64,000 nt of DNA from an uncultured Planctomycetales bacterium (GTDB lineage: Bacteria; Omnitrophota; Gorgyraeia; Gygaellales; Profunditerraquicolaceae): positions 49,927 through 113,926 of the forward strand of contig CAZIUK010000002.1 in NCBI GenBank assembly GCA_964542785.1, in the 5' to 3' direction. Numbering within the stretch: the stretch's first letter is position 1; the number at the start of each line of letters is the position of its first letter. The translations under genes were made by a program, and so were the position numbers. The notes under the pieces are model-generated. The model saw only the letters and a list, made by a program, of their open reading frames with translations, ran no database searches and was not told the DNA's origin. Of the stretch, positions 36,233 through 55,835 are shown piece by piece.

Positions 36233-36370
36233 TACAAGCTTAATTTTAGGTAACTTTAAATTTAACCGGCTACTTAAGATAAAGTTTACAACATAGACAA
36301 GTAAAAACAAGGGTAATTCGGGAATACTTTGAAAAGGGTTTCTTTAGCATTCTTCTTGCTGAATATACGA

Positions 36371-37406: not shown

Positions 37407-38918
37407 TTAAAAACGGAGCTTTTCTTTATCTATCTTTCCTGCGCGGTTTTTAGGAAGGCTATCCTTAAAGACAAAATAATGCGGAATCTTAAAATTAGCT
37501 AAGCGCTCTCTTAAATAGTAACGCAAATCCTTTTCATCTAAGCTCTTGCCTTCTTTTAAGACTACAAAGGCCTTTGGAACCTCTCCTCTTAAATCATCTC
37601 TAGCGCCTACTACTGCTGCCTCGGCTATATCTTCATGTTTTTGTATTGCTGCTTCTACCTCCGGCTCAAAAACTATCTCTCCGCCTACTTTGATCATCTC
37701 TTTTTTTCTACCTACTATATAAAGGTTCCCATCCTCATCAAGCCTACCTAAATCTCCGGTATAAAACCACCCATTGCTCTTTGACTCTTTAGTAAGGATA
37801 GGGTCTTTATAGTAACCACTAGTTACAACCCAACTCTTAACTACTATCTCACCTATCTTTCCGGTTTGGACCACCCTTCCTTCATCATCAAATATTTTTA
37901 TCTCTATCCACGGAGCAGGCCTACCTACACTCTCTATCTTTCCTGACCCCATCGGTAAAACAGCAGTAGGGGCATTGGTCTCAGTCATCCCCCAACCATT
38001 TAAAAGATGCGCATTAGGGCAAAACTTATGGAACCTACGCAAGGCATCAGGAGAACTGGATGCGCCAAAAGTAACTATCCAACGTAAAGATGAAAGATCA
38101 AATGTCTCAAATTCTTTTAACTGTAAAAACGCATAATACATTGAAGGGACTATCCAAAAAAAACTAACCTTATATTTTATAATATTCCTTAAAAACTCAA
38201 GCGGGATAAAGCGCTCCATCAGTATAAGCCTTAAAGAAAAACAAATAGTATTCTGGATATAGATAAGCCCTCCTAAGTGAGAAAAAGGCAAAGCAGAGAG
38301 TGTTGTATCTTTATCGCTTAAATCACTATTTACAAAAAACTCCATTGACTTAGGAGGCGCTAAAAGTTGTTTATAGCTTATCAATACCCCTTTAGGCTTT
38401 CCGGTAGTACCTGAAGTATAAAAGATTATCGCCGGTTCATCTTCAGCTATATTAACATTAAGCGCATTGACATTACTATCTTCAATACAATCATTAAAAA
38501 ACCTACAGCCTTCTAATCTATCCTGGCAAGTAATAAAAACCTTTAAAAACGGTGTCTTTTCTTTTAAAGTGGCTATACGAAGATTGGCTTTAGGCTTAAA
38601 GATAAAAACCTTTGCCTCGCAATGCCTAAGGCAGGATAATAACTCATCCGTAGTAAGCATAAAATCTAATGGCACAGCTATGGCTCCCAATACCCATACT
38701 GCAAGATAACTATATATATACTCAGGCCAATTAGGCAGATACAAAGCAACCCTGTCACCTTTCTTAACTCCTTGATTTTTAAGGCTATTGGCTAAGCGTA
38801 TAGACCTCTCCTGTAACTTATCCCAAGATATCGCCTCTTCTCTAAAGATAACCGCATCCTTTTCAGGGTGCAATCTTGCTTTCTCTTCTAATATTTTGAT
38901 TAACCCCATCTTAACCAA
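37407..38918 (-). CDS. AMP-dependent synthetase/ligase (acyl-CoA or acyl-ACP synthetase-like adenylating enzyme)
   Basis: IFYTSGTTGKPKGV (AMP-binding motif I), YGMTET-like GWGMTET and the GRKKEMIKVGGE C-terminal block are present. Confidence 0.75.
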   Translation of the reverse strand: MVKMGLIKILEEKARLHPEKDAVIFREEAISWDKLQERSIRLANSLKNQGVKKGDRVALYLPNWPEYIYSYLAVWVLGAIAVPLDFMLTTDELLSCLRHCEAKVFIFKPKANLRIATLKEKTPFLKVFITCQDRLEGCRFFNDCIEDSNVNALNVNIAEDEPAIIFYTSGTTGKPKGVLISYKQLLAPPKSMEFFVNSDLSDKDTTLSALPFSHLGGLIYIQNTICFSLRLILMERFIPLEFLRNIIKYKVSFFWIVPSMYYAFLQLKEFETFDLSSLRWIVTFGASSSPDALRRFHKFCPNAHLLNGWGMTETNAPTAVLPMGSGKIESVGRPAPWIEIKIFDDEGRVVQTGKIGEIVVKSWVVTSGYYKDPILTKESKSNGWFYTGDLGRLDEDGNLYIVGRKKEMIKVGGEIVFEPEVEAAIQKHEDIAEAAVVGARDDLRGEVPKAFVVLKEGKSLDEKDLRYYLRERLANFKIPHYFVFKDSLPKNRAGKIDKEKLRF

Positions 38919-42213: not shown

Positions 42214-43698
42214 TTAAAATCCGTACCAGTAACTTACCAATGGTTTAGATTCAAGGGAGGTATCTTTTATTATATTCTTCATACGCGTATATTCCAAGAA
42301 CCCTTCACGGCCAAGCTCCTTGCCAAAACCGCTTTGTTTAAATCCTCCATAAGGAAATTGATTATAAAACATCCCATAAGTATTTATCCATACTATTCCG
42401 GCATTGATTTTTTTAGCTGCCTCTTCAGCAATCTTCATATCACGGGTAAAGATAGCGGAGGCAAGAGCAAAATCAGAGTTATTCGCTAAAGATACTGCTT
42501 CCTCAAAACTACTGAAACGCTCAACCAAAGCCACAGGGCCAAATGCCTCTTCTTTAAATGTGCGCATATTAGGCTTAACCCCTTCTAAAATAGTAGGCTC
42601 AAAAAAATACCCATTTTTTAAAGCCGGATCCTGCGGAATTTTGCCTCCGCATAAAACCTTAGCGCCTTCTATCTTAGCCTTTTCAATATAAGCAATAATT
42701 TTTTTCCGTTGGCTATCGCTGATTAAAGGGCCCATTTGAGTCTCATGATTATCAGCCAAGCCTAATTTTATCGCCTTAGCTTTATCTACGAAACTATTTA
42801 TAAATTTATCATATATAGGATTTTGCACAAAGATACGCGACATCGCCGTACACATCTGTCCTTGATTTAAAAATACAGAGCAAAGCACACTATTAACCGC
42901 TGTATCAATATCAACATCATCAAAAATTAAACTTGCGGATTTCCCACCTAATTCCATTAGCAACTTTTTAATATTGGCAGAAGAGTACCGCAATATCTCT
43001 TTACCGACTTCAAGGCTACCGGTAAAAGAGAGCATATCTATTCTTTTATCAGAAGAAAGTAACTCGCCTATACGCGCCCCCGGGGCATTGATAATATTTA
43101 AAGCTCCTTTTGGCAAACCTGCCTCATGGGCAATACTACCTAACTCAAAGGCGGATAATGGCGTTAAGCTTGAAGGTTTTAGAATAACGGTATTGCCAGA
43201 GGCTAAGGCAGAAGCTAATTTCCAAGAAGCAATCAAAAGCGGATAATTCCAAGGGATAATTAAAACTGTTAATCCTAAAGGCTCACGTAATAAATACCCT
43301 TCAGCCTCTTCTGCCGGTACAATAGCCTCCGAAGATAGATATTTTTCAAAATTATTAGCAATATGCTCAAAGGTTTTGGCAGAAGAAGGGACATCCATAA
43401 AAGTAGTCTCTTTAATAGGCTTACCTGTATTTTCAGTTTCAATAGCTGCCAAATCTCCTGCCTTGTCAAGGATACCCTCGGCAATCCTTAAAAGAAGACT
43501 CTTACGCTCTTTAAAAGACATATTAGGCCAACTACCGCTATCAAAGGCATTACGCCCGCTTTCAATAGCTGATTCTATCTCCTTAGAAGAAGCAATTGAG
43601 GCTAAAGCAATAACCTTCCCAGTTGAAGGATTAAGCACATTCTGCTTCTCCTTAGTCTCTATAAACTCTCCGTTTATATAAAGCGGAATCTCTTTCAT
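42214..43698 (-). CDS. NAD(P)-dependent aldehyde dehydrogenase
   Basis: LMELGGKSASLI (catalytic Glu block) and FLNQGQMCTAMSRIFV (catalytic Cys) are present, as is the Rossmann GxGxxG-like FTGSLEVGKEI. Confidence 0.8.
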   Translation of the reverse strand: MKEIPLYINGEFIETKEKQNVLNPSTGKVIALASIASSKEIESAIESGRNAFDSGSWPNMSFKERKSLLLRIAEGILDKAGDLAAIETENTGKPIKETTFMDVPSSAKTFEHIANNFEKYLSSEAIVPAEEAEGYLLREPLGLTVLIIPWNYPLLIASWKLASALASGNTVILKPSSLTPLSAFELGSIAHEAGLPKGALNIINAPGARIGELLSSDKRIDMLSFTGSLEVGKEILRYSSANIKKLLMELGGKSASLIFDDVDIDTAVNSVLCSVFLNQGQMCTAMSRIFVQNPIYDKFINSFVDKAKAIKLGLADNHETQMGPLISDSQRKKIIAYIEKAKIEGAKVLCGGKIPQDPALKNGYFFEPTILEGVKPNMRTFKEEAFGPVALVERFSSFEEAVSLANNSDFALASAIFTRDMKIAEEAAKKINAGIVWINTYGMFYNQFPYGGFKQSGFGKELGREGFLEYTRMKNIIKDTSLESKPLVSYWYGF

Positions 43699-44696
43699 AT
43701 AATCCTTACTTCCTTAAACAACGCAAAAAGCCGGGTAAAAGGAACATACCACTTTGAAAGCTGGCCTAACTGCCCGGATAACTTCATCTTACCCTGAGTT
43801 ACCGCAACAAAGGAATCAAGCTTCCCTAAGAACACCTGCCTCCATACCTCCGGCACAGCAGAGATTACAAAAGGAGCATCGCTATCAAAATCTAATTTCA
43901 CTATTCTACCTTTTTCAAAATTAAACCTGTAGGCATCCTCTTTCCCATCCATTTTAATCGCAAGTTTTACTGTCAAATCAAGCTCTCTTCCTTTTTGCCC
44001 GATAAACTCATCCTTATTTACTAAATCTACGATTGCCTGAATATGCTCTTTAGAGAACATCGGCAAAGCCACATTTTTATTTAAATCCCTCTTTATCTCC
44101 TTATCTAAATCATCAAACAGGCTCTTCTCAAAAATCCTAGCTACCGCAGCAGTCCTTACTGCCTCTTCCAGCGCTTGAATAAGGCTTAAAGAATCTAAAA
44201 AATTATCTCCTATTGCAACAACCCCATGACTCTTTAAAACTACAAGGTTGCTACTCTTTAACGCCTCAATCACCTCTATCGGCTTGGTAACCGTAGGAGT
44301 CTCCTGCTTAATCACAGGGACATCCCCCAAATAAAACTTTGTCTCAAAAGTTAAGGCTTTTAAACTTGAAGTAACAGCAAAATAACCATTAATCAAAGGA
44401 GGATGACAATGGAGCACCTTAGTTGCTTTTAAATTTTTATAGACTAAGCTATGCAAAGGCAGCTCTGAACTTGGCTTAATATCCCCCTTATATCGATTTG
44501 AATTTAATTCTACCCTTACAATATCCTTATACTTTAAATCCCCCAAGGATACGCCAGAGGCAGTAATTAAAATATACCGCCTATCAAGCTTAGCGCTTAT
44601 ATTCCCGGATTTTGCTACTGCTAAACCTGTTTGATATATCCTTCTTCCTACCTCTATAATTTCTCTCTTTAAGTTTTTCTCTCTGCTAAAAAACAT
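43695..44696 (-). CDS. class II (FucA/Ald2-type) aldolase fused to a C-terminal SCP2 sterol-carrier-like domain
   Basis: In the N-terminal ~190 aa, AKSGNISAK, PSSELPLH (catalytic Glu), VLHCHPP and KSHGVVAIG (Zn His ligands) align with L-fuculose-1-P aldolase. The C-terminal ~140 aa has an SCP2-like pattern (GKEDAYRFNFEKGRI...KMKLSGQLGQL). Confidence 0.6.
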   Translation of the reverse strand: MFFSREKNLKREIIEVGRRIYQTGLAVAKSGNISAKLDRRYILITASGVSLGDLKYKDIVRVELNSNRYKGDIKPSSELPLHSLVYKNLKATKVLHCHPPLINGYFAVTSSLKALTFETKFYLGDVPVIKQETPTVTKPIEVIEALKSSNLVVLKSHGVVAIGDNFLDSLSLIQALEEAVRTAAVARIFEKSLFDDLDKEIKRDLNKNVALPMFSKEHIQAIVDLVNKDEFIGQKGRELDLTVKLAIKMDGKEDAYRFNFEKGRIVKLDFDSDAPFVISAVPEVWRQVFLGKLDSFVAVTQGKMKLSGQLGQLSKWYVPFTRLFALFKEVRII

Positions 44697-44708
44697 CTCT
44701 CTTCCCCT

Positions 44709-45641
44709 TTAAAGACTACCGCTAATTTTAAAGTGTATATGCCTTGTAATAAAGTTATTGGGGGTAATATCAAATGCCGGGTAATAACCCTTAGCTCCTT
44801 TTGGCGCAAGCCTTAAACCCCTATACTCTAACATCTCTTTATCCGGCCTAACCTCTATTTTTATATCACTACCACTCTTTACTCCTGATGGCGGCGGGCA
44901 GATAACATAAAAAGGGATATTAAAATGCTTTGCGGCTACGGCAATCTGGTATGTTCCGATTTTATTAGCAATATCCCCGTTTAAAGCTAAGTGGTCAGCT
45001 CCGACAATAACCTTATCAATCAACCCCTTTTGCATAACGTAAGCTACCATATTATCTGTAATCAAGGTAACGTCAAACCCGCCCCTCTTTAATTCCCAGG
45101 CAGTAAGGCGCGACCCCTGCAAATAAGGCCTGGTCTCTGTAGCAAAAAATCTTAAGGTTTTCCCCTGCTTAAGGGCGAGCTTTGCGATTAAAGGCATAAG
45201 CCCACTTATATTACAATGGGTTAAAATTGCCTCTTTATTCTTTAATAACTTTACTACATCTTCTGCCTGTTTTATACGGCTATATTTTAGCCCTTGAAGA
45301 AACTTGAATATATTTTCTTCTAAAGATTCACTGCGCTTCTGCCAGCCTAAAACCATATCGGTTAAATATTTGAAAGAAAGGGTAGGCCTCGTATTATTAA
45401 TAGCTGCGGCAACCTTAAAAAGGTCTCTTGTACCTTTCTTTTTAAGCAATTGAAGGAATATATACATTACCAAAAGAACCTGCCCTACTGCGCGCGTCTT
45501 CATATTCTTAATCGCCTTGCAAGCCTCTTTGTAATTACGCGCTTTTATATAGGCAAGCCTCTGCGGCAGTTTAGTCTCATCAAGAATATAAATAGTACTA
45601 CCCTTTAATTGAACCGGCCAGAATAAAGGAGAAAACTTCAT
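44709..45641 (-). CDS. mtnA: S-methyl-5-thioribose-1-phosphate (5-deoxyribose-1-P) isomerase, eIF-2B alpha/beta/delta family
   Basis: FATETRPYLQGSRLTAWEL and VIVGADHLALNGDIANKIGTYQIAVAAKHFNIPFYV are MtnA signatures. Confidence 0.8.
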   Translation of the reverse strand: MKFSPLFWPVQLKGSTIYILDETKLPQRLAYIKARNYKEACKAIKNMKTRAVGQVLLVMYIFLQLLKKKGTRDLFKVAAAINNTRPTLSFKYLTDMVLGWQKRSESLEENIFKFLQGLKYSRIKQAEDVVKLLKNKEAILTHCNISGLMPLIAKLALKQGKTLRFFATETRPYLQGSRLTAWELKRGGFDVTLITDNMVAYVMQKGLIDKVIVGADHLALNGDIANKIGTYQIAVAAKHFNIPFYVICPPPSGVKSGSDIKIEVRPDKEMLEYRGLRLAPKGAKGYYPAFDITPNNFITRHIHFKISGSL

Positions 45642-45648
45642 AGTATCT

Positions 45649-46422
45649 CTATTTTTCCTCTAATTTTTTAACTGCAGTTAAAGCAATAGTAAGCAAATTA
45701 GCCTCTGCCATATAATAAGCAGGATTCATAAAGCCCATCTCACCGGTAATAACATTATCGCTTACCGCTAAAATTGAACCGGCCTTAATATTATAAGTTT
45801 GCGCAATCGTAAGCAAAGCCGAAGAGACCATATCTACTGCCCTTGCCCCCTCTTTGCGCTTAGCCTCAACTATATGGCGTGTTTCGCGTAATAACGCATC
45901 CGTTGTCCAAGCTACCCCGCGGTGGATATTTAAATCCATCTCTTTAGCTACATTATATAAAGTATCGGCTATTCTTTTGTCGGATAAAGTCTTAAAACTC
46001 TCTTCAACATAATAAGGAGTGACTCCGTCCCCACGGATAACTTCATCTACAACAAAAAGATCCCCTACCTTAATATCTTCATCCAAAGACCCGGCAGTAC
46101 CAATACGGATAATATTCTCTATCCGGGCATTGCACATAACCTCCGTAGTAATAGAGGTATCCGTTGAGAATCTTCCTCCGTTTATCGCCGTAACCCTAAC
46201 CCCTTGATAATTACCGGTAAACATAGAGTATTCCATAAAGGTAAAATTCTTTATCGGATTTTCTAACTTTTTTAATAGCGTCTCAAGTCTGTCTTTTGGT
46301 CCGGGGACTATCGCATATTTGCCTACATCCTGCGGCCTTAACTGCACCATATCCGTCAAATCCTTGCCTGTTAAATGCACCTCTTTTTGCATACGCATAA
46401 GCCTAATCTCCTTATTATACAA
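45649..46422 (-). CDS. PNP/UDP-family nucleoside phosphorylase (DeoD-like; candidate MTA/5'-deoxyadenosine phosphorylase)
   Basis: IVPGPKDR, IIRIGTAGSL and AVDMVSSAL...LAVSDNVITGE align with hexameric DeoD-type phosphorylases. It is adjacent to mtnA. Confidence 0.65.
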   Translation of the reverse strand: MYNKEIRLMRMQKEVHLTGKDLTDMVQLRPQDVGKYAIVPGPKDRLETLLKKLENPIKNFTFMEYSMFTGNYQGVRVTAINGGRFSTDTSITTEVMCNARIENIIRIGTAGSLDEDIKVGDLFVVDEVIRGDGVTPYYVEESFKTLSDKRIADTLYNVAKEMDLNIHRGVAWTTDALLRETRHIVEAKRKEGARAVDMVSSALLTIAQTYNIKAGSILAVSDNVITGEMGFMNPAYYMAEANLLTIALTAVKKLEEK

Positions 46423-47332
46423 ATACCCCTTTCAATACCTCTTCTAAATTATCCCCTAAGATACACTGCTTATCTTCTTTAGGTATATCTAAACTATTAA
46501 TTGCCTGAATACTTAAGGCAAAATCTTTTTTTGCTGGATAATCACTCCCCCATAAAATACGCCTAGCCCCAAAGAGCGATAATGCCGATTGGAAATTAGC
46601 CCGCGTAGTATCTCCTGAAGTATCCACATAGATATTCTTTAAAAAATCTGTTGGGACTCCTTTTAAGTCCTTAACAAAATTAATTGAACGCAGCATCTGA
46701 TAAGTCGTATCAAACCTCCTGGCTAAAAAAGGTAACACTCCGCCAAAATAAGCAAAGATAAACTTTACTTTATATTCGCGTAGAATATCCGCCATTAAAA
46801 GTTTGCCGATACAAATTGTAGTATCAAATACATACTCAACTACCGGCGTAAGCAAAGGGTCCTCCACACGCTCGCTTCCTATGGGTTTTACAATCTGCGA
46901 ATGGACAAAGATAGGAATACCCTTCTTTTGCACTAACTTATAAATACAAAGGAATTGCTCATCATCAAGATAAACCCCGTTATAACTGGTAGCTAAAGAT
47001 ACGGCCTTAAACCCGAGCTCTTCGGTTGCGCGCTTAACTTCAGAGAGCATATCCTCTTTACAGCCAACCGGTAAAATTGCCGCACCAATAAACCTATCCG
47101 AGTATCTTTTAATTATCCTACCTACATTATCATTGAATATACGCGCAACCTCTGATAAACTTTTAAGTTTTAGGTGAGCATCGGATGTAGGATAAGATAA
47201 TACCGCTCTATCAATACCCGCCTCATCCATCATTTTAAGATGAGACTCGATATCCCCCCACCCCTTATGGTAAAAGTGGGCGTTGGTAATTATCTCTTCC
47301 GGTAGCCAATGGCTATGCGCATCAAATAACAT
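46415..47332 (-). CDS. amidohydrolase-2 (ACMSD-like TIM-barrel metal hydrolase)
   Basis: MLFDAHSHW (HxH metal site at the N-terminus), an internal His and ILWGSDYP (C-terminal Asp) follow the PF04909-type pattern. Confidence 0.6.
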   Translation of the reverse strand: MLFDAHSHWLPEEIITNAHFYHKGWGDIESHLKMMDEAGIDRAVLSYPTSDAHLKLKSLSEVARIFNDNVGRIIKRYSDRFIGAAILPVGCKEDMLSEVKRATEELGFKAVSLATSYNGVYLDDEQFLCIYKLVQKKGIPIFVHSQIVKPIGSERVEDPLLTPVVEYVFDTTICIGKLLMADILREYKVKFIFAYFGGVLPFLARRFDTTYQMLRSINFVKDLKGVPTDFLKNIYVDTSGDTTRANFQSALSLFGARRILWGSDYPAKKDFALSIQAINSLDIPKEDKQCILGDNLEEVLKGVFV

Positions 47333-47355: not shown

Positions 47356-47748
47356 TTAATGCTCTCTACTCTCTAATATTCGCTGAGTCATCTCCTTTTC
47401 ATAAAGGAGTTTTATCTCTTTTAGCCCCTTGACTCCTAATTCCTTTATAATTGCCTTTTCAAGCGCGCGAAATTTAGCGGTTAAAAAAACATAATCAGGT
47501 CTTACCTTCTTATCCTTAAATTTAAGACTTACTCCCAAAGCCTCCTTCTTAGCAACATACCTCTCGAACTCTTTTATAAAGGAAGATAGATCTTTTATGC
47601 CCTGCGTGCTTTTAAGCTCTTTTAGTATAACCCAGTCAATCTCTACTTGCGTAAACTTACGCTCAATCTTATCTACCTTTTCTTTTAAAGTTTTATAAAA
47701 CCAGATAAGGTAACGTTTTTTTAGGTTTTTAATATCTTCTTTATTCAT
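47356..47748 (-). CDS. hypothetical protein
   Basis: It is an intact 130-aa ORF in an operon context and is Lys/Glu-rich. No motif was recognised. Confidence 0.3.
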   Translation of the reverse strand: MNKEDIKNLKKRYLIWFYKTLKEKVDKIERKFTQVEIDWVILKELKSTQGIKDLSSFIKEFERYVAKKEALGVSLKFKDKKVRPDYVFLTAKFRALEKAIIKELGVKGLKEIKLLYEKEMTQRILESREH

Positions 47749-48564: not shown

Positions 48565-49689
48565 TTATAATATTTTAGGTTTTTTGAATTTATCTAAGAA
48601 TAATAAAGATAAAAGCCCTAAACCAAAAAGAATAAACCCTAAGCTAAAACTGCGCGACATAACCAGCCCTCCAAACACCATGCCTATGCCGCCTGAGATA
48701 AAACGGATTCCACTATTTAAGCTTGCTGCTTCATTTAAAAATTCATCCGGTAAATCGGTAAGCATAGTAGCTAACCCTGCGTGGTTAAAGGTCCACCCCA
48801 ACCCCCAAACGCCCATGGTTAAGATAAGCAGGGCTAAAGGGACCTTAAATATTAATAGAATGATACTGATTATCATCAGTAATAATCCTAAATCAACGGT
48901 CTTACTTCGACCTATAGAGTCTGCAAGCGCACCCCCCCACAACTCACCGAATATACCGCTTAAAGAGGTCAAGGTTATCAACATGCTAATAGTAAATTGA
49001 TTAAGCCCAAACTCAGTAGAAAAATATACTCCCAACCACTGCTGTACGGCATGATAGATAAGGCTAATTAAGAAGATGTAGGTTAGTATCCTTAAAACTA
49101 CCCTATCCTTAAAAGCCTTAAAATAATTAAATTTCAATCCTGTTATATCATCTTTAAAACTAGGAAGCTTATAATACATAACTCCCCAGAGGACAAAACC
49201 AAAGAACGCCGGGATAATAAATATCCAACGCCAATAAATTACCCCACTTAAAAAAAGCCCCAAAAGGGAGGCGATAAAAGTAGCGCTAAAAAAAATCCCG
49301 ATATACTTCCCCTTCTTTTCTCTCTCCTGATGCTTACCGATTAGTATAAGCCCAAGGGGTATTACTGAAGCGCCGAACAACCCCATAAAAAACCTCCCTA
49401 AAAAAAGAGAGTATATATTCCAAGATAGAGCTACTAATAAATTAGCAAAAGAAAAAAAGAAGATGCAGGTTAATTCTATCCTACGCGCATCAAACCTACG
49501 CACCAGGGGGCCGTAAAAAAATGCCGCTACTCCGTAGGTAAGCATATAAACCCAGATAATCCTACCGACTAAAAACTGAGAAAGAGCAAACTCGCCCGCT
49601 ATAGAAGGTATGAGCGCTGCGGAGGCTGCGACATTAAAGGAGAGGAGCGCTCCTTCAAGACAGAAGATAAAAAAGGTTGATTTCTTCAA
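48565..49689 (-). CDS. MFS transporter
   Basis: It has 12 predicted TM helices. A GRxxDRxGRR-like loop (RRFDARRIE) follows TM2, and the size is about 370 aa. Confidence 0.7.
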   Translation of the reverse strand: MKKSTFFIFCLEGALLSFNVAASAALIPSIAGEFALSQFLVGRIIWVYMLTYGVAAFFYGPLVRRFDARRIELTCIFFFSFANLLVALSWNIYSLFLGRFFMGLFGASVIPLGLILIGKHQEREKKGKYIGIFFSATFIASLLGLFLSGVIYWRWIFIIPAFFGFVLWGVMYYKLPSFKDDITGLKFNYFKAFKDRVVLRILTYIFLISLIYHAVQQWLGVYFSTEFGLNQFTISMLITLTSLSGIFGELWGGALADSIGRSKTVDLGLLLMIISIILLIFKVPLALLILTMGVWGLGWTFNHAGLATMLTDLPDEFLNEAASLNSGIRFISGGIGMVFGGLVMSRSFSLGFILFGLGLLSLLFLDKFKKPKIL

Positions 49690-50126
49690 GAATTAGCTTC
49701 CTTTTCAATAACTCTTTTAAAAATCTGCAAATTCTCCTTGGAATGCTTATTTATAAACCCCTCTACCTCTTCATCGCTAAACTTTGCTTTGCTATCCATC
49801 TCAAAATGCTGTATCCAGGTAAGCTCTACCCCTTCGGGCCTTAAAGTATAAAGCCAGATAATCTTCATATACTTAAAAGGGAACTTAGGCTCCAGTCTCT
49901 CGGCATAAGCTAAGTGATTATCTTTAAGCAAAAGCCTCCAAGAGACCCAGGTCTTATCCTCATCGTCAGTTAAACGGAAGGTAATCTTATCCCCTTCCTT
50001 GCTTATTATCTCTGCTTTTTTATATTCCGTGCCAAACAACTCTGTCCAACGGAGAATATCATTGGATATATCAAAAACTTTTTCATAAGGCGCATTTATG
50101 ATAATAGAATTGCAAGTATGTCCCAT
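49686..50126 (-). CDS. SRPBCC (Bet v1-like) protein, polyketide cyclase/aromatase-like
   Basis: At 146 aa with the pattern INAPYEKVFDISNDILRWTELF...W..W, it is the size and type of the TcmN/ZhuI-family ARO/CYC enzymes. The call is tentative. Confidence 0.45.
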   Translation of the reverse strand: MGHTCNSIIINAPYEKVFDISNDILRWTELFGTEYKKAEIISKEGDKITFRLTDDEDKTWVSWRLLLKDNHLAYAERLEPKFPFKYMKIIWLYTLRPEGVELTWIQHFEMDSKAKFSDEEVEGFINKHSKENLQIFKRVIEKEANS

Positions 50127-50158: not shown

Positions 50159-50959
50159 TTAAATTATCGCAACTACCCTAGACCAGGCAGCCCCGGTTTT
50201 ACGTATCCTTACCGGAAAACAGATAATTTTAAAATTAGTCGCCAACGGTAAAGCTCCTAAGTTGCTTAACCTCTCTATATGAATAAACTCTCTTTTTCTA
50301 CCGTAAAAATGCGCTGGGTAAAATTTATCCGGGTCTTTAGATTCCAAAAATTCCTTTAACATAAACCTATAAGGCCTATCTATGCCCATAGTATCCACGC
50401 CAAAAACCTTAATCCCGTTATCAATAAGAAAGTCTATCGCTGAGGTATCAATCCCGGGATAATCGGTAAAATATTTAGGGCTACCATAAAACCTATCTGC
50501 CCCTGTCCAGATAAGGACAATATCCAAGGGTTTTAAAGTATAACTAATCTTACCTAATGCTTCTTCTAAATCTCCTTTAGTTATCACCTCTGCCGGCTTC
50601 TTATGACGCAAATCTAAGCGTAAGGCATCCCAATAGCAATATTCAAGGGGTATCTCATCGGCTGTTTTAGAAGGCCTGCCTTCGGATTTAGTCCCATAAT
50701 GAAAGGAGTAATCTAAATGCGTCCCCACGTGTACCGGAGAGTGGACTATCTCTAAAGAGAGAAACTCTCCATCAGGAACATCCGAAGTTTTAAGTATTCT
50801 TTTGCCTAAAAGATAGCGAATCTTCCCCTTTAAAGTCTTCCCCATAATTACGCGGTTAAACTTTTTTACCCCCGCCTTATGGGTTATACGTTCAATATCC
50901 ACCTTGTGCACTTCAAAGGCGGTCTCATCAATGGGAAGACTTAAGTCAATTATCTTCAT
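50159..50959 (-). CDS. cyclase-family protein (PF04199 'putative cyclase'/kynurenine-formamidase fold)
   Basis: HSPVHVGTHLDYSFHYG is the HxGTHxDxxxH metal motif of this family. Confidence 0.65.
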   Translation of the reverse strand: MKIIDLSLPIDETAFEVHKVDIERITHKAGVKKFNRVIMGKTLKGKIRYLLGKRILKTSDVPDGEFLSLEIVHSPVHVGTHLDYSFHYGTKSEGRPSKTADEIPLEYCYWDALRLDLRHKKPAEVITKGDLEEALGKISYTLKPLDIVLIWTGADRFYGSPKYFTDYPGIDTSAIDFLIDNGIKVFGVDTMGIDRPYRFMLKEFLESKDPDKFYPAHFYGRKREFIHIERLSNLGALPLATNFKIICFPVRIRKTGAAWSRVVAII

Positions 50960-51231: not shown

Positions 51232-52698
51232 TTATATCTGTATTTCTCCCTTAGTAGCCGCAGCCTCCCACTTATTAATCCCATCCATAACATCCTTAAA
51301 ACAAAGCTTTGCTAAAGGGTCAAAATTACTCTCCATAATGCGGTTTATGCGCCCGGGTTTAGAGAAGAACTCACGCATACACCAAGCACCTAGGCGCCCT
51401 AGGTCTTCTATAGTTAAGTGGTCTGTAGGAATAACCGGATGCAAGAAGTCCCAAGTAGAAAAGTCAACCTTTCTAGGGTCAACCCAACCTTTCTTTAAGG
51501 CGATCCTCCACATCGGAGAATTAGGAGCCGGAGTAACGTAACCAACCCACATTATATCCGGGTCAACGCTATCGGTAAATTCAAAACGCTGTTTTATAAT
51601 CTCTTCAGTATCATAATCAAAACCCATCATGATATCGGCGACAATAGCAATATCATTTTTACGCAAAATATCTATGGTCTTTTGAATCTGCTCTAAGGTT
51701 ATCCCTTTTGCAATCTTTTTTAACTCTGACTGAGTTGTTACCTCAATCCCAAAAACTCCCATAAACAAACCGTTCTCTTTCATAATCGGGACTATTGATT
51801 CGCAATTAACCCAATCAATCGCTCTACCCAAAGAGACCCATTTAATCGGATTGCCTGATGCTTTTTTTAATTCGCAGAACTTTTTAACCCGCTCAGGGTC
51901 GACATTAAAATTATCATCCTGTATAACTACGACTTTTACCCCGTATTTCTTATGCAACAACTCTAATTCCTCCATCACTCTCTCTGGAGATTTGGCCCGC
52001 CACTTAAGGAAATCCGACGGTGAACGCGGATCAAATTGATCCCACTCATAACAAAACGTGCACGCCGAAGGACAGCCCCGGGAAGTCACCATATCCACAA
52101 AAGGCTTCCAATAAGTATGCCCGACATATTTATCCATAGGAAATAAATCATAGGCGGGTAAGGGCAATTTGTCTAAATCCTCCATCAAAGGCTTATGCGG
52201 GCCCATAACAATATTGCCATCAACGCGCGAGGTAACCCCGGCTACATCTTTTAAAGGTTTATTCTTATCAATCGCCTCAATTAAATCCCCAAATGACTCT
52301 TCCTCTGCCATAACTACAAAGTCAACCTCGGGGTTATCTTCTAAAGTAGGCACAGGCATCGCTGAATACCATAAACCTCCTAATATTATCTTTGTTTTCG
52401 GTAAAACCTTTTTAATCCCTACAGCCGCATCTTTAAAGTGGCGTAAAACGCCATATCCACCATAACCATGCAACTGCTCCCCCATAACAACAATATCCGG
52501 GTTTTTTTGCTTTACAATCTCAATAAGCTGCTCCATAGGAATCTGCTCAGCCTTGCCGTCTAAGACCTCAACATCCGAATACCCGCGCGTCTCTCTTATA
52601 TATGCTGCCCAATGCGCATAAAGTTGATTTGGCGACCTATGAATACCGTGCGTTGCCCACGCGCCTACCTTGGGCATAACAAATAGTATCTTCATCAC
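51232..52698 (-). CDS. B12-binding (class B) radical SAM enzyme
   Basis: An N-terminal Rossmann-like cobalamin-binding domain is followed by TSRGCPSACTFC (CxxxCxxC). The length is 488 aa. Confidence 0.8.
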   Translation of the reverse strand: MMKILFVMPKVGAWATHGIHRSPNQLYAHWAAYIRETRGYSDVEVLDGKAEQIPMEQLIEIVKQKNPDIVVMGEQLHGYGGYGVLRHFKDAAVGIKKVLPKTKIILGGLWYSAMPVPTLEDNPEVDFVVMAEEESFGDLIEAIDKNKPLKDVAGVTSRVDGNIVMGPHKPLMEDLDKLPLPAYDLFPMDKYVGHTYWKPFVDMVTSRGCPSACTFCYEWDQFDPRSPSDFLKWRAKSPERVMEELELLHKKYGVKVVVIQDDNFNVDPERVKKFCELKKASGNPIKWVSLGRAIDWVNCESIVPIMKENGLFMGVFGIEVTTQSELKKIAKGITLEQIQKTIDILRKNDIAIVADIMMGFDYDTEEIIKQRFEFTDSVDPDIMWVGYVTPAPNSPMWRIALKKGWVDPRKVDFSTWDFLHPVIPTDHLTIEDLGRLGAWCMREFFSKPGRINRIMESNFDPLAKLCFKDVMDGINKWEAAATKGEIQI

Positions 52699-52743: not shown

Positions 52744-53976
52744 CTAATTAAACTTTTCTACTACTAATACTGCGTTAATTCCGCCTCTGCCGCGCGAGAT
52801 TACTAAAGCCCTATTAATCTTATATTCTTTAGCCTCTCTACTAATATAATTAAGTCCATTTAAAGCAGGTGAATCTAAATTAACTGTTGGCGGAACTAAA
52901 CCATTCTCCATCGCTAAGGTAGTAGCGATTAAATCAACTACGCCGGAGGCGCCTAACAAATTACCGAACATTGATTTAGGACAACTAACCGGAATATCTT
53001 TGGCCCTCTCTCCAAAAACATCCTTTATTGCCTCCACCTCAGAATTATCCCATAAATCAACTGCCAAGCCATCTAAGCTAATATAATCTATGTCTGAAGG
53101 GACTACTTTAGCATCTAAGAGTGCCTCCTTTATCGCCCGGGCAAGCTCTTTCCCGTCGCTTGCGCAATTTATCCGGTCAACTCCGTCACAAGTAGTCGCA
53201 TACCCTGAAATCAAAGCGAATATATTGGCTTTGCGGGATTTTGCCCTCTTTATACTCTCCATAACCACAACCCCTGAGCCTTCACCTATAACGCAACCAC
53301 TACGGCTCTTATTAAAAGGCCTGTAGGCTTGCTGGGGCTTTGAATTATCTTTGGAGAGCGCGCCATAAGTATTACAACATAAAAGCGCATAAGGAGTAAC
53401 CGGCGCTTCCATCCCCCCGGCAAGGATAAAATTCAATTTATTCTTTAATAATACTTTTTTAGCATAACCTAAGGCCATCAAAGAGCTAGCGCGATCGGCA
53501 ACGACTGTCTTTGAGAACCCCTTAATCCCATAGTAAATTGACACCTGTCCTTGCGGAGCCGCTGGAAACCACGCAGACGCCATATAAGGAGAGACCCCCT
53601 CTCTTCCTTCAATATACATATCCCTAAGCTCAGTCTCGGCGTAAAGCCACCCTCCAATAGCATTGCCTAAAAATATGCCTACTAAATTCGGATCTTCGCT
53701 TTTAATATCAATACCGGAATCTTGCAAGCTCATCTCTGCAGCAACTAAGGCCATGTGTGAAAAGACATCGATTTTCTTTAAGAGCCGCTCTGAGATATGA
53801 CTATATTTTTCTAAATCGTCAATCTGCCCGGCAATACGCGAAGGGTATTTAGAGGCGTCAAATCGAGTAATCTCTTTTATAAAAGACCTACCGCTTTTTA
53901 TATTCGCCCAAAACTGCCTCTTACCTATCCCAGAAGGAGTTACAACCCCTAAACCTGTTATTGCAATCTTATCCAC
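52744..53976 (-). CDS. ketosynthase-like chain-length-factor (KS-beta/CLF-type) protein lacking the Cys-His-His triad
   Basis: The fold is full-length KAS I/II, but the active-site position reads VVADRASS (Arg where FabF has ATACTSG Cys). The first His is absent (LDGLAVD) and the second is replaced (KSMFGNLLG, His to Asn). It has a GTG start with an AAGGAGA Shine-Dalgarno and overlaps the KS gene by 8 nt. Confidence 0.7.
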   Translation of the reverse strand: MDKIAITGLGVVTPSGIGKRQFWANIKSGRSFIKEITRFDASKYPSRIAGQIDDLEKYSHISERLLKKIDVFSHMALVAAEMSLQDSGIDIKSEDPNLVGIFLGNAIGGWLYAETELRDMYIEGREGVSPYMASAWFPAAPQGQVSIYYGIKGFSKTVVADRASSLMALGYAKKVLLKNKLNFILAGGMEAPVTPYALLCCNTYGALSKDNSKPQQAYRPFNKSRSGCVIGEGSGVVVMESIKRAKSRKANIFALISGYATTCDGVDRINCASDGKELARAIKEALLDAKVVPSDIDYISLDGLAVDLWDNSEVEAIKDVFGERAKDIPVSCPKSMFGNLLGASGVVDLIATTLAMENGLVPPTVNLDSPALNGLNYISREAKEYKINRALVISRGRGGINAVLVVEKFN

Positions 53977-55231
53977 TATATCTCCTTAATATCAATGAAG
54001 AGTGTATCCCGGAAAAACCACTACTAGTTTTTAAAATAGTATTTACTTTTTTTTCTATCGCTTGATTCGGTATATAATACAAATCACACTGCGGGTCCTT
54101 CTCCTCCTGATTGATTGTAGGAGGCAAAAGGTTTTTTTCAAAAATCATTGAGGCAATAGTCATCTCAATTGCGTTTGCCGCTGCCAAAGGATGCCCAATC
54201 ATAGACTTAAAAGAACTAATGGGTAAGCTATAAGCATACTCTCCGAAAATCTCCTTATAAGCGCTTGTCTCAAATATATCATTCATCCGGGTTGATGAGC
54301 CATGCGCGTTTATATAATCAATCTCTTTTGACTTAATCCCTGCGTCTTTAAGGGCTAAAGATATACAAGTCTCCATCGCCTGCCCATCGGAAGGAAGGTC
54401 GGTCATATGAAAGGCATTGCAGCTTGTACCAAATCCTAAAACCTCGCAATATATAGGCGCGTTACGCTTTAAGGCATGGCCTAATTCTTCTAATATCAAA
54501 ATACCTGCTCCTTCTGAGAGAACAAATCCGTCACGCTTATTATCAAACGGACGAGATGCCTTTTGCGGATCATCATTATGCACGGATAAAACATTTACTA
54601 CGTCAAAAGCACCAAAGGTTATCGGTGTAATCGGCGCCTCCGCTGCGCCACAAATCATAATATCACACTCTCCATCTTGAATAGACTCTAAACCAAACCC
54701 CAAAGAGTCTGTCCCAGCAGTACATCCTGTTGAAAGGGTGCTACAACTTCCTCTTAACTTATATTTAGAGGATAACTCTATAGAAGGAGTATTAAACATC
54801 GCAGCGTCATAAAGATCAGGACGTACCTTTGAAGGATCTATGGGATTCTTCCCATCATCTGTAACAAGCGCAAACTCCTCCTCCATATACTTTGTCCCGC
54901 AGATAGCATTAGCCAAACAAACCCCAATACGCCTAGGGTCTTCTTTATTAAAATCCAAACCGCTATCCTTTACTGCCATATCTGCAGCAACTACCCCGAA
55001 TTGCACATACCTATCCATGCGCATAGCCTCTTTATGAGTTAAACCCAATTTAAAAGGGTCAAAATCACGTACCTCTGCGGCAATCTTGGTATTAAATATA
55101 GAGACGTCAAACCCATCAACGCGCTCTACCCCAGACTTACCTGATACAAACCCCTCCCAAGCAGATTTCTTCCCTATGCCGTTAGGAGATATAACCCCTA
55201 TGCCTGTAATAACTACTCTGCGTTTATTCAT
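53969..55231 (-). CDS. beta-ketoacyl-ACP synthase (active KS-alpha/FabF-like)
   Basis: STGCTAGTDS (active Cys), NAHGSST and KSMIGHPLAAA (both His) are present. The start is moved to the ATG at 55231 (MNKRRVVITGIGVIS); the track start is TTG and overlaps the upstream gene. Confidence 0.8.
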   Translation of the reverse strand: MNKRRVVITGIGVISPNGIGKKSAWEGFVSGKSGVERVDGFDVSIFNTKIAAEVRDFDPFKLGLTHKEAMRMDRYVQFGVVAADMAVKDSGLDFNKEDPRRIGVCLANAICGTKYMEEEFALVTDDGKNPIDPSKVRPDLYDAAMFNTPSIELSSKYKLRGSCSTLSTGCTAGTDSLGFGLESIQDGECDIMICGAAEAPITPITFGAFDVVNVLSVHNDDPQKASRPFDNKRDGFVLSEGAGILILEELGHALKRNAPIYCEVLGFGTSCNAFHMTDLPSDGQAMETCISLALKDAGIKSKEIDYINAHGSSTRMNDIFETSAYKEIFGEYAYSLPISSFKSMIGHPLAAANAIEMTIASMIFEKNLLPPTINQEEKDPQCDLYYIPNQAIEKKVNTILKTSSGFSGIHSSLILRRYSG

Positions 55232-55235
55232 AAGA

Positions 55236-55835
55236 TTATCTTTTCTCCTCGTCAATCCTCGTTACCTTAAAGACTATATTCCCTCCATCAGGACAAGTGA
55301 CTGTATCTATTGAATTAGGGTCTTGCATGAAGAAAAATTTTGCCCCGAAGTTTAATGCAAAGAGCGCCGGAAAAGCGCAATGAAAAGCAGCCCCGCAAAA
55401 ATTTGGGATAGTCTTTAACCCTTGCGTCTCCCACCTATCCCCTACTTTATACCCATAAGAACATTTGCCCTTAGCCTTAACTACTTCAATAATCATCTTT
55501 TTAGGGTTTGGGCCCTTATGCCTTAAGTCCTTAGCGACAAACTCTACATTCCCCTGCTTGTCAAGTATCTCTGCTTGAAACTCCAACTTACCTCCGTCAG
55601 GGCAGGTAACCAAAAGTGACCTCTGGTTTTCTCTAAACCCGAATTTTGCCCCAAAACTTAAAGCATAGATAACCGGGAATAAAGCATGCGCTAAACCTAA
55701 ACAAAAATGCTTTGGAGGATGGGTAAAATCTTCTAAGATAATCTCATCCCCCTTTTTATAGCCATGGTAGCATTCGCCAAATACATTAGTTACGGTTAAC
55801 TTTAATTTAGGAAAGGGCGTCTTAACTTCTCTCAT
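55236..55835 (-). CDS. tandem-duplicated Cys/His-rich domain protein (two TIGR04076-like ~95-aa repeats), probable metal-binding, function unknown
   Basis: Repeat 1 is GECYHGYKKGDEI...HFCLGLAHALFPVIYALSFGAKFGF...VTCPDGGKLEF. Repeat 2 is GKCSYGYKVGDRW...NFCGAAFHCAFPALFALNFGAKFFF...VTCPDGGNIVF. Confidence 0.4.
   Translation of the reverse strand: MREVKTPFPKLKLTVTNVFGECYHGYKKGDEIILEDFTHPPKHFCLGLAHALFPVIYALSFGAKFGFRENQRSLLVTCPDGGKLEFQAEILDKQGNVEFVAKDLRHKGPNPKKMIIEVVKAKGKCSYGYKVGDRWETQGLKTIPNFCGAAFHCAFPALFALNFGAKFFFMQDPNSIDTVTCPDGGNIVFKVTRIDEEKR

Follow-up and report, generated by a model that had tools for sequence, protein, structure and literature searches.

A candidate DHAP-shunt-type gene block within a conserved, uncharacterised lipid-type cluster of uncultured bacteria

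We analyzed a 64,000-nt window of an Omnitrophota genome (GTDB; assembly GCA_964542785.1, contig CAZIUK010000002.1, positions 49,927-113,926, forward strand) and found that a block of four adjacent genes at 42214-46422, encoding a phosphorylase, an isomerase, an aldolase and an aldehyde dehydrogenase (ALDH), travels as a constant component of an uncharacterised lipid-type cluster in more than 100 uncultured bacteria. We tentatively interpret the four genes as a DHAP-shunt-type module built into this conserved lipid/polyketide-type cluster, with 5'-deoxyadenosine as the proposed substrate. In this reading the module is not a general housekeeping operon; its location within a lipid-type cluster and the lipid-binding domain on its aldolase may indicate a role beyond housekeeping. 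The block had been noticed in a preliminary description of this DNA, and we confirmed it with the following features:

42214..43698, minus strand: NAD(P)-dependent, hydrolytic (non-acylating) ALDH, 494 aa (Aldedh, E 2e-161)
43698..44060, minus strand: SCP2 (sterol carrier protein 2) domain of the aldolase fusion, about aa 213-333
44127..44696, minus strand: class II (metal-dependent, FucA/DrdA-like) aldolase domain of the fusion, about aa 1-190
44709..45641, minus strand: MtnA-type aldose-1-phosphate/ketose-1-phosphate isomerase, 310 aa (IF-2B, E 2e-57)
45649..46398, minus strand: NP-I family (PNP_UDP_1) nucleoside phosphorylase-like protein, 249 aa (Pfam, E 5e-36)

As previously proposed, the enzyme types and their order fit the phosphorylase, isomerase and aldolase logic, with aldehyde oxidation, of 5-deoxyribose disposal or the DHAP shunt (PMC6079011). 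Catalytic residues are intact in the isomerase, the aldolase and the ALDH. The isomerase passes TIGR00524 (210.8 versus a cut-off of 185.85), stays below the mtnA equivalog cut-off (225 versus 279) and scores only 115 with the R15P isomerase model; among PDB structures it matches 1t9k best (TM0911, E 3e-57), and the THCN Cys and GAD Asp motifs align there. The ALDH translation contains both the ELGGK Glu and the motif of the catalytic Cys, and its gene, directly downstream in 96 of 116 loci, is translationally coupled to the aldolase by an ATGA overlap that can be read directly (stop codon of the fusion protein, 43695-43697). The structures nearest to the ALDH are BADH, ALDH2 and ALDH1A, so that its specificity is not assignable.

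The earlier description of the aldolase as FucA-type is supported: the catalytic domain, like the closest relatives that lack the fusion, obtains its highest scores with short FucA-type models and not with MtnB models. The latter gave only partial matches (72.7 and 64.6 bits) and the Ru1P aldolase model NF053831 a weak one (64.9 bits). The fused SCP2 domain is likewise genuine, and it is ancient, invariant and as conserved as the catalytic domain. Judging from the alignment and from FucA mutant structures, it would sit at the point where, in FucA, the C-terminal tail (F206/Y209) closes over the aldehyde pocket; of the FucA pocket residues, Y113 corresponds here to F117 and F131 to P134. A literature search found no report of an aldolase-SCP2 fusion, and to our knowledge no SCP2 fusion to a sugar-phosphate aldolase has been described before; known SCP2-fused enzymes include peroxisomal MFE-2/SCPx, the alkylsulfatases SdsA1/YjcS, and UbiJ/UbiT.

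In contrast, the phosphorylase, previously called DeoD-type, belongs to neither the DeoD nor the MtnP type, and three residues that canonically bind ribose or phosphate in NP-I enzymes are missing from it. JGI names it uridine phosphorylase. Its ORF reaches 46422, and its orthologs, which share at least 80% identity, start at an internal Met. No NCBIfam cut-off was reached, the top scores being for uridine phosphorylase (102.7, cut-off 280) and DeoD (87.5, cut-off 230); the HpnG model gave 46.6 (cut-off 187), and an MtnP identity was rejected (TIGR01694, 18.6 versus 274.85). Invariant M17 aligns with DeoD His4, M55-E56-Y57 (also invariant) replaces the region of Arg43, a phosphate ligand that becomes Met or Phe, and an invariant D189-M190-V191-S192 occupies the place of the expected E-M-E, with Val for the canonical Glu that binds the ribose 2'/3'-OH. 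Invariant S213-D214-N215 corresponds to the DeoD S-D-H. The protein combines a purine-type acid with a hydrophobic Met17 where normal nucleoside phosphorylases bind the 5'-OH.

The block had been placed merely beside radical SAM (rSAM) genes. We found instead that it belongs integrally to a KS/CLF - ACP - B12-rSAM - AMP-ligase cluster, with which it is inherited through several gene orders. In the window, this cluster comprises:

37407..38918, minus strand: AMP-forming acyl ligase, long-chain fatty-acid-CoA ligase type (PRK06187, 434 bits versus a cut-off of 476)
46415..47332, minus strand: Amidohydro_2 protein, directly upstream of the phosphorylase (Pfam, E 4e-22)
49686-50126, minus strand: SRPBCC/Polyketide_cyc2 protein (Pfam)
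50159-50959, minus strand: PF04199 cyclase (Pfam)
50963-51196, minus strand: dedicated ACP (Pfam)
51232..52698, minus strand: B12-binding rSAM enzyme (BchE/HpnJ-like), the constant partner of the block (NCBIfam)
52744..55255, minus strand: KS/inactive-KS (chain-length-factor-like) pair, both FabF-like (KSa 53969-55255, KSb 52744-53976)
55236-55835, minus strand: TIGR04076-family protein, in every layout (synteny)
55837-56844, minus strand: ApbA/PanE-type reductase, in every layout (synteny)
56848-57108, minus strand: conserved 86-aa ORF, in every layout (synteny)

A PadR gene also belongs to the partner set. KSa retains the Cys-His-His triad, and KSb has Arg, Asp and Asn at these positions. 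The B12-rSAM gave sub-cut-off scores with the BchE (196 bits) and HpnJ (160 bits) models and only 63.9, again below the cut-off, with the ladderane-type model TIGR04072. Among 50 loci with long flanks, the block co-occurred with the B12-rSAM in 46, the ACP in 48, the PF04199 cyclase in 47 and the SRPBCC protein in 45. Block and B12-rSAM are strictly co-inherited, and the linkage to this particular rSAM holds down to 37% fusion identity. The same partner set recurs in at least four distinct gene orders, including lineages at 37-47% fusion identity and a Syntrophaceae MAG. The rSAM gene adjoins that of the ALDH in the deep-branching layout and is inserted within the block in loci L170 and L173. 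The long-chain-type AMP-ligase adjoins the ALDH, phosphorylase or aldolase gene in every layout, as it does the closest unfused aldolase. In many Omnitrophota its gene immediately follows that of the ALDH; in the deep-branching layout it immediately precedes the phosphorylase gene; and in L093, in the reduced variants L135 and L145 and, by the ORF and synteny maps, also in L132, it immediately precedes the aldolase gene. The Amidohydro_2 gene is lineage-restricted, being present in Omnitrophota layouts and missing from the deep-branching one (synteny). RlmN, earlier named with the B12-rSAM as a source of 5'-deoxyadenosine, is only a lineage-specific neighbor; like PurU and DUF748, it is unrelated and comes and goes among loci.

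In the route that we tentatively favor, the B12-rSAM would free 5'-deoxyadenosine at each turnover, and the phosphorylase would strip the adenine to leave 5-deoxyribose-1-phosphate, which the MtnA-type isomerase would convert to 5-deoxyribulose-1-phosphate. The metal-dependent aldolase would cut the C3-C4 bond to give DHAP and acetaldehyde, and the ALDH would irreversibly oxidize the aldehyde to the acid; MTA might be handled in the same way. The general chemistry, from 5'-X-5'-deoxyadenosine to adenine, DHAP and X-CH2-COOH, is likely, and X = H is its possible special case. The nucleoside, and with it the aldehyde, is inferred, as are the flux direction and why the block and the rSAM are linked; co-inheritance with the rSAM may reflect a need for local removal of the stoichiometric, inhibitory by-product of a high-flux lipid-modifying enzyme. 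Several observations count against this route. Splitting a five-carbon sugar phosphate to yield acetaldehyde would leave the ancient SCP2 domain without a role; the phosphorylase, which is not of the MtnP type, lacks the 2'/3'-OH Glu and Arg43; and the ever-present AMP-ligase is of the long-chain type, not an acetyl-CoA synthetase. Furthermore, one Omnitrophota subclade has the cluster without the phosphorylase, and a reduced variant (aldolase-SCP2, AMP-ligase, SRPBCC-like ORF, ApbA and MFS) retains the fusion without phosphorylase, isomerase, ALDH or rSAM. We also know of no published DHAP-shunt cluster that is tied to a particular rSAM. The preliminary interpretation, partly supported overall, left the SCP2 domain, the persistent ligase and the phosphorylase-less variants without explanation; these features suggest that a substrate other than plain 5'-deoxyadenosine or MTA is possible.

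Such a substrate could be an adenosine whose 5'-substituent, X, is a hydrophobic intermediate of the pathway, the block then serving biosynthetic trimming with SAM as net two-carbon (carboxymethyl) donor, which we consider rather unlikely. The rSAM would join X to the 5'-deoxyadenosyl radical, as HpnH and MqnE do, or X would arise by B12-dependent alkylation of the 5'-methyl group; after adenine removal, isomerase and aldolase would shed C1-C3 as DHAP while SCP2 held the hydrophobic tail of X-CH2-CHO, and the long-chain-type ligase would re-activate X-CH2-COOH, made by the ALDH, for the KS/CLF-ACP machinery or a PlsC-like acyltransferase. The conserved SCP2 fold and its presumed site over the aldehyde pocket, the ubiquitous ligase, the rSAM inserted within the block and its persistent linkage, and the unusually hydrophobic phosphorylase pocket (Met in place of His and of Arg, Val in place of Glu) argue for this route, as does the irreversible hydrolytic ALDH type, which fixes the flow as aldehyde to acid to thioester. 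HpnH/HpnG and MqnE offer a precedent in which an rSAM forms an adenosyl adduct and a PNP-family enzyme then removes the base (PMC13459092). In HpnH/HpnG (adenosylhopane to ribosylhopane) and MqnE/MqnB (aminofutalosine), a PNP_UDP_1-family enzyme is likewise genetically tied to an rSAM in a lipid or quinone pathway, and the ribose carbons stay on a hydrophobic acceptor. Nothing in those pathways corresponds to the isomerase, aldolase and ALDH steps. The sole conserved rSAM here is B12-binding and BchE/HpnJ-like, a type to which, as far as we know, no adenosyl-adding rSAM enzyme (HpnH, MqnE) belongs. No HpnH or MqnE homolog was found within the window, the HpnG score is far below cut-off, the ALDH looks like generic ALDH1/2/9 enzymes rather than like dedicated fatty-aldehyde dehydrogenases, and a literature search found no such route described.

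Ordinary ribonucleoside catabolism, via ribose-1-P and ribulose-1-P to DHAP and glycolaldehyde and on to glycolate, with last steps like those of the haloarchaeal non-carboxylating pentose bisphosphate pathway, would agree with the uridine phosphorylase scores and name and the weak NF053831 match. It is improbable: an invariant Met stands in for the His that binds the ribose 5'-OH and a Val for the 2'/3'-OH Glu, the isomerase scores as MtnA-type (225-251 bits) rather than as an R15P isomerase, the Pfam and NCBIfam searches show no kinase or phosphatase for ribose-1-P, and the link to the B12-rSAM/KS/ACP cluster gets no reason. We give equally little credence to a free-standing operon for housekeeping salvage, its neighbors merely reflecting conserved synteny of compact Omnitrophota genomes, the implicit earlier model. 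In its favor, the whole window is one tightly packed single-strand gene string, so gene spacing is uninformative, promoter and terminator scans showed no excess over shuffled sequence, and RlmN, PurU and DUF748 do vary; conservation of the partner set through rearrangements and the rSAM inside the block speak against it. That the aldolase-like protein is an MtnB-type dehydratase starting methionine salvage from MTA is very improbable. In favor of it are the partial MtnB matches, an invariant E118 one residue beyond the FucA Tyr113 position, near which MtnB enzymes presumably carry a catalytic Glu (APIP literature), and the presence, in one subclade, of a class IV aminotransferase instead of the phosphorylase. 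Least probable is a halo-adenosine route, in which 5'-fluoro- or 5'-chloro-5'-deoxyadenosine would yield a haloacetate starter unit. The identical four-step logic (FlB phosphorylase, isomerase, aldolase, fluoroacetaldehyde dehydrogenase) gives fluoroacetate in Streptomyces cattleya (PMC6079011), and a crcB-DUF190 fluoride-exporter pair lies directly upstream of the phosphorylase in ∼20 loci. However, that insertion is limited to closely related loci (CrcB 73-86% identical) and missing from the window, no DUF62 fluorinase/chlorinase occurs in the window or the examined layouts, and a search for a fluoride riboswitch found none. The block also differs from the S. cattleya pathway in lying within a type II FAS/PKS-like cluster.

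The cluster resembles the "ladderane-type" BGCs called by antiSMASH in Omnitrophota and anammox Cluster I (PMC9902471; bioRxiv 10.64898/2026.05.19.726425) in its dedicated ACP, B12-binding rSAM and active plus catalytically dead FabF, KSa/KSb paralleling amxFabF2/amxFabFmut (bioRxiv 10.64898/2026.05.19.726425). It differs in its rSAM below the TIGR04072 cut-off, in having no amxFabZ or phytoene-desaturase-like gene, and in its PF04199 cyclase, SRPBCC, ApbA and PadR genes and its four-gene block; on this block the sources consulted are silent for the anammox cluster. Compared with 5-deoxyribose disposal by DrdK/DrdI/DrdA and its phosphorylase-initiated variants (Beaudoin et al. 2018, PMC6079011) and with the DHAP shunt (MtnP/MtnK-MtnA-Ald2; PMC10986504, PMC12632272), the predicted products, DHAP and an aldehyde, are alike, whereas here the phosphorylase is a divergent NP-I protein and not MtnP, the aldolase carries SCP2 and is coupled to a hydrolytic ALDH, and the module is co-inherited inside the B12-rSAM/KS-CLF/ACP/AMP-ligase cluster. 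Deep-branching lineages also add a second, half-length IF-2B-like gene.

Four consecutive ORFs on the minus strand (42214-46422) encode a PNP_UDP_1 phosphorylase, an IF-2B/MtnA-type isomerase, a class II aldolase extended at its C terminus, and an aldehyde dehydrogenase (ALDH). This block lies in a compact, nearly all minus-strand gene string with a G+C content of ∼38%. Homologs of the encoded proteins place the organism in Omnitrophota.

Genes of the block and its surroundings in the window
57306-63970: PadR, MarR, RND efflux set (TolC-like OEP, HlyD, AcrB), and P-II-like protein, directly upstream of the cluster
Next after the efflux genes, upstream of the block: 86-aa ORF, ApbA-type reductase, TIGR04076 protein
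52744-55255, upstream of the block: tandem FabF-like pair (KS and dead KS)
Upstream of the block: B12-binding radical SAM enzyme (BchE/HpnJ-like), then ACP
Upstream of the block, after the ACP: PF04199 cyclase, SRPBCC protein, MFS transporter, FabG-like SDR
47356-47748, between the SDR and Amidohydro_2 genes: conserved 130-aa ORF without family match
Upstream of the block, after the 130-aa ORF: Amidohydro_2 protein
42214-46422, minus strand, first ORF: phosphorylase, PNP_UDP_1 protein, 257 aa
42214-46422, minus strand, second ORF: isomerase, IF-2B/MtnA type, 310 aa
42214-46422, minus strand, third ORF: aldolase-SCP2, class II aldolase with C-terminal extension, 333 aa
42214-46422, minus strand, fourth ORF: ALDH, 494 aa
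Downstream of the block: PlsC-like acyltransferase, PurU, DUF748 protein, long-chain-type AMP-ligase, RlmN

Because the orthologs of the phosphorylase are 249 aa long, not 257, we place its start at an internal Met (46398). An ATGA overlap joins the stop of the aldolase gene to the start of the ALDH gene. Promoter and terminator scans were no richer than those of shuffled sequence. Neither the window nor the related loci L003, L007, and L018 gave a riboswitch match in Rfam; the sole matches were two divergent tRNA genes of the window (31426-31498, minus strand; 31563-31645, plus strand).

The fusion of the aldolase to an SCP2 domain, announced in the preliminary description, is real and old. 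The window protein scores just short of the Pfam gathering threshold for SCP2 (20.7 vs 21.3); of 26 fusion proteins with 25 to 56% identity to it, 21 match SCP2 independently and two more match the SCP2-like Alkyl_sulf_C family. The C-terminal domain has the alpha/beta SCP2 fold, and its conservation equals that of the catalytic domain. When 1.84 billion representative proteins were searched exhaustively, the full-length architecture turned up in ∼25 further 50%-identity clusters, down to 27% identity, one of them including a protein from a Syntrophaceae MAG. None of the papers searched mentions SCP2 and a class II aldolase together; the preliminary description had noted that the domain is not a feature of known Ald2/FucA enzymes.

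The catalytic set of the fusion protein is invariant, with E78 (in the PSSE motif), H96, H98, and H157 plus the phosphate-site residues N32, S76, and S77, that is, the three metal-binding His, the catalytic Glu, and the DHAP phosphate site of a class II aldolase. In an alignment with a FucA sequence whose numbering agrees with the literature, these residues match E73, H92, H94, H155, N29, S71, and S72 of FucA. In the same alignment, Tyr113-Met114 of FucA are replaced by the invariant F117-E118, Phe131 by Pro134, and the C-terminal tail that closes over the aldehyde pocket (Phe206, Tyr209) by the linker and SCP2. Since the chain runs on from where the FucA tail covers this pocket, the SCP2 domain may be placed on the aldehyde side of the active site; the mutual orientation of the two domains is uncertain in the predicted model (pTM 0.55). 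The aldolase domain fold matches those of FucA and DrdA, and the equivalent catalytic Glu of DrdA is Glu76 (PMC6079011).

The aldolase domain and its closest unfused relatives scored best with PRK08660 and FucA_Meth, models of short archaeal-type aldolases. MtnB models ranked lower (TIGR03328, 64.6 vs a cut-off of 137; NF006672, 72.7 vs 226, aligning residues 5-100 only), and the FucA equivalog was also far off (TIGR01086, 39.3 vs 400). An ALDH, putatively hydrolytic, directly follows the fusion in 96 of 116 informative loci, which argues for an aldehyde as the aldolase product; in six more, DeoC and zinc alcohol dehydrogenase genes lie between the two. Given the model ranking and the ALDH neighbor, we therefore treat the fusion protein as an aldolase. 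An MtnB dehydratase as member of the block is a weak alternative, and we set it aside on the scores, the fold ranking, and the coupled ALDH. The 64-kb window encodes no MtnC, MtnW, MtnX, or MtnD. Both the proposed FucA/Ald2-type aldolase with its catalytic Glu and, within the window, the reported absence of a canonical methionine-salvage continuation are supported.

None of the four block proteins reached an NCBIfam equivalog cut-off. The isomerase alone passed a subfamily model (TIGR00524, 210.8 vs 185.85), and its THCN and GAD motifs, containing the catalytic Cys and Asp, align with 1t9k; its earlier assignment to the MtnA type is upheld, its score of 225 lying below the strict mtnA cut-off of 279. 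The ALDH carries the ELGGK Glu and the catalytic Cys in its translation and is predicted to be of the irreversible, hydrolytic type; the structures nearest to it span betaine aldehyde, acetaldehyde, and retinal enzymes, a range from which substrate preference is not inferable.

The phosphorylase had been described as DeoD type, and this assignment did not survive. All equivalog scores for DeoD-type purine and uridine phosphorylases lie far under their cut-offs, and the MTAP model gave 18.6 vs 274.85. Orthologs at least 80% identical are found across Omnitrophota and are labeled by NCBI as hypothetical only. We aligned the protein with 3qpb (Streptococcus uridine phosphorylase), 4tym (DeoD-type PNP), 1odi (Thermus PNP), and 3of3 (Vibrio DeoD). 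The phosphate site is mostly retained (Gly33, Arg37, Arg98, and Thr101), and S213-D214-N215 aligns with the S-D-H of DeoD, which carries the acid protonating purine N7. Met17 occupies the position of DeoD His4, a ligand of the ribose 5'-OH, M55-E56-Y57 that of Arg43, and D189-M190-V191-S192 that of the E-M-E-[AS] motif of NP-I enzymes, the second Glu of which binds the ribose 2'/3'-OH in DeoD, UP, and MTAN. The DeoD ligands His4, Arg43, and Glu181 are replaced by Met, Met/Phe, and Val, respectively, and the substitutions are invariant, extending to a deep-branching ortholog of 56% identity. Judging from these residues, the hydrophobic 5' position would fit a purine nucleoside that is 5'-deoxy or 5'-substituted and speaks against ordinary ribonucleosides; ribonucleoside catabolism is a weak alternative. 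No kinase of the MtnK or DrdK type is present in the window beside the PNP_UDP_1 protein. A ribose-1,5-bisphosphate route was set aside, the isomerase being of another type and a kinase lacking.

Together, the four enzymes probably convert a 5'-X-5'-deoxy-purine nucleoside, X being the group at the 5' position, into the base, DHAP, and X-CH2-CHO, which would be oxidized to X-CH2-COOH. X is not readable from the sequence. The block would work like a DHAP shunt or 5-deoxyribose disposal cluster, with an added ALDH, and would share its four enzyme steps with fluoroacetate biosynthesis in Streptomyces cattleya, the fluorinase gene of which was not found here. Its proteins fall outside strict membership in MtnP, DeoD, FucA, and MtnB.

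Matches occurred in 171 species-representative genomes, and we took 80 loci from these, along with 80 metagenome loci that carry deep-branching fusions and ∼12 individual look-ups, giving 162 unique loci of up to ∼21 kb onto which the cluster genes were mapped by tblastn. Genomes were searched with a close alignment and metagenomes with one of five deep-branching fusion sequences, a 26-sequence alignment being too variable; several distant fusions lie on contigs of 1 to 4 kb with little context. In 102 of 113 informative loci, the gene directly upstream of the fusion is MtnA or a half-length IF-2B-like gene. Fifty loci extend at least 8 kb to each side; in these we found MtnA in 49, ALDH in 49, ACP in 48, the cyclase in 47, the B12-binding radical SAM enzyme in 46, the SRPBCC protein in 45, the phosphorylase in 44, and the AMP-ligase in 41. 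The gene set stays while the gene order varies among lineages.

Layouts of the cluster
(a) Window type: KS, CLF (chain-length-factor-like inactive KS), radical SAM, ACP ... Amidohydro_2, phosphorylase, MtnA, aldolase, ALDH ... AMP-ligase
(b) Subclade including Ca. Susulua stagnicola: radical SAM adjoins Amidohydro_2; phosphorylase absent or class IV aminotransferase in its place
(c) Deep-branching: PadR, AMP-ligase, phosphorylase, MtnA, half-MtnA, aldolase-SCP2, ALDH, radical SAM, u86 (conserved 86-aa ORF), SRPBCC, ApbA, u199, KS, CLF, ACP, cyclase, SRPBCC
(d) L170 and L173: radical SAM between MtnA and aldolase
(e) Reduced (L132 3586-9427, L135, L145, L169): PadR, AMP-ligase, aldolase-SCP2, 204-aa SRPBCC-like ORF, ApbA, and MFS only

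Layout (c) is very stable and also occurs on a 3.36-Mb contig. In the Omnitrophota subclade with layout (b), L037, L048, L059, L060, L061, L065, L068, L069, and L154 have no phosphorylase in the cluster; its slot is empty in L037 and holds the class IV aminotransferase in the others examined. Since the genes upstream in L132 match the full cluster of L174, the reduced L132 variant looks like a deletion derivative that keeps the fusion without its sugar-phosphate partners. L092 has an isolated aldolase-SCP2 copy. The closest unfused aldolase homolog comes right after an AMP-ligase ortholog. Coincidental synteny is hard to reconcile with the same gene set persisting through several orders and with the ligase beside the unfused homolog, and a free-standing operon is a weak alternative. 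The block had also been linked to the radical SAM enzymes of its gene string: the B12-binding enzyme indeed persists with it through the gene orders, whereas RlmN, bona fide in the window, is its neighbor in one lineage only.

Of the two FabF-like proteins encoded in tandem, the downstream one shows Arg, Asp, and Asn at the positions of the Cys-His-His triad. This protein is chain-length-factor-like, and the pair a putative KS/CLF-like heterodimer, as recently described for anammox bacteria. The KS/dead-KS/ACP/B12-binding radical SAM core resembles the anammox "ladderane" Cluster I (bioRxiv 10.64898/2026.05.19.726425). A KS/dead-KS pair and an ACP are present here; the radical SAM enzyme scores 63.9 vs 360 for TIGR04072, and the window contains no FabZ. 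The host cluster is only loosely ladderane-like. "Ladderane-type" clusters of similar kind have been reported in Omnitrophota MAGs (PMC9902471), and our literature search found no published description of a cluster bearing the block. Solved relatives of the radical SAM enzyme are remote only (AprD4, CysS, and TokK), and its chemistry is not assignable from them. PadR may regulate the cluster, since a PadR ortholog heads it in the deep-branching layout, and the RND pump may be its exporter.

The most economical answer for X, to which we give somewhat less than an even chance, is H: the block would remove the 5'-deoxyadenosine made by the cluster's own B12-binding radical SAM enzyme. 5'-Deoxyadenosine would yield DHAP and acetaldehyde, and MTA is predicted to yield DHAP and (methylthio)acetaldehyde. 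This answer takes known reactions only (PMC6079011), and it would explain the radical SAM linkage if that enzyme runs at lipid-scale flux. It gives no reason for the SCP2 domain, for the persistence of an AMP-ligase of the long-chain type, for the changed ribose site of the phosphorylase, or for the reduced variants and those without a phosphorylase. Two of these, SCP2 and the ligase, are accounted for by the main rival explanation, which we consider rather unlikely, namely that X is a hydrophobic pathway intermediate joined at C5' by the radical SAM enzyme. This enzyme would form a C-C bond at the adenosyl C5' of SAM, either with a hydrophobic acyl or polyketide intermediate as acceptor of the 5'-deoxyadenosyl radical or by 5'-methyl alkylation. 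The phosphorylase, isomerase, SCP2-aldolase, and ALDH would then trim the nucleoside to a carboxymethyl group, with departure of adenine and DHAP, and the AMP-ligase would re-activate X-CH2-COOH for the KS/CLF-ACP system. HpnH/HpnG and MqnE offer precedents (PMC13459092), but the chemistry needed is not known for B12-type radical SAM enzymes. Unlike the HpnH/HpnG and MqnE/MqnB systems, the enzyme here is B12 binding and BchE/HpnJ-like, and the phosphorylase scores far below the cut-offs for HpnG (46.6 vs 187.1) and futalosine hydrolase (28.9 vs 124.7).

A halo-adenosine route, a weak alternative, is suggested by a crcB-DUF190 fluoride-exporter pair directly upstream of the phosphorylase in ∼20 loci (L003 5596-6313, L018, L025, L028, L034, L035, L038, L044, L045, L050, L053, L057, L058, L066, L071, L073, L075, L087, and L168); the window is without it. 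No fluorinase or chlorinase domain (DUF62) occurs in the window or the variant loci scanned, and a fluorinase-linked pathway was set aside on that ground. Rfam detected no fluoride riboswitch in L003 or L018.

There is a realistic, clearly minority chance that the block is categorically new. We know of no earlier case of 5'-deoxyadenosine disposal hard-wired to one particular radical SAM enzyme. If X is H, the block would be, as far as known, the first such route, the by-product load of a lipid-modifying radical SAM enzyme would be large enough to shape operon structure, and there would be a way to approach what "ladderane-like" clusters do, a group that is reported from many anaerobic phyla and has no known product. 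If X is instead a hydrophobic intermediate, SAM would be a C2 donor in lipid or polyketide assembly, a logic to our knowledge not described before, which would be common across Omnitrophota and occur in further uncultured anaerobes, and SCP2 would have a new role in sugar-phosphate chemistry. Carried by at least 171 genomes at species level, the aldolase-SCP2 fusion is a marker that is precise and easy to search for, and a tractable way into lipid and secondary metabolism in Omnitrophota, which is almost unknown.

In deep-branching lineages, a half-length MtnA-like gene always lies directly upstream of aldolase-SCP2, beside full-length MtnA (L007 9306-9785, L170 4068-4589, L174 9583-10008, L008, L009, and most of L094-L148). 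Its product (140-206 aa) is related to the MtnA C-terminal half only (23-33% identity) and may associate with the aldolase as a partner subunit; the gene is lost in the window's lineage. Between aldolase-SCP2 and ALDH, L003 (9013-10843), L064, L083, L153, L164, L167, and L171 carry genes for a class I aldolase of the DeoC family and a zinc alcohol dehydrogenase, both of which typically deal with products of the acetaldehyde type. At the position of the 130-aa ORF, most relatives (L001, L003, L005, and ∼35 other loci) also encode a ∼200-aa CBM_11-like protein that the window lacks. Downstream of RlmN, the window encodes a 1507-aa protein with central HEAT repeats and no other recognizable domain (31787-36310). 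A separate, uncharacterized gene group (2847-6964) comprises a second, unrelated small radical SAM enzyme (4936-5946), a class III aminotransferase, a HAD-type phosphatase, and a ThiI/NFACT-R_2 protein.
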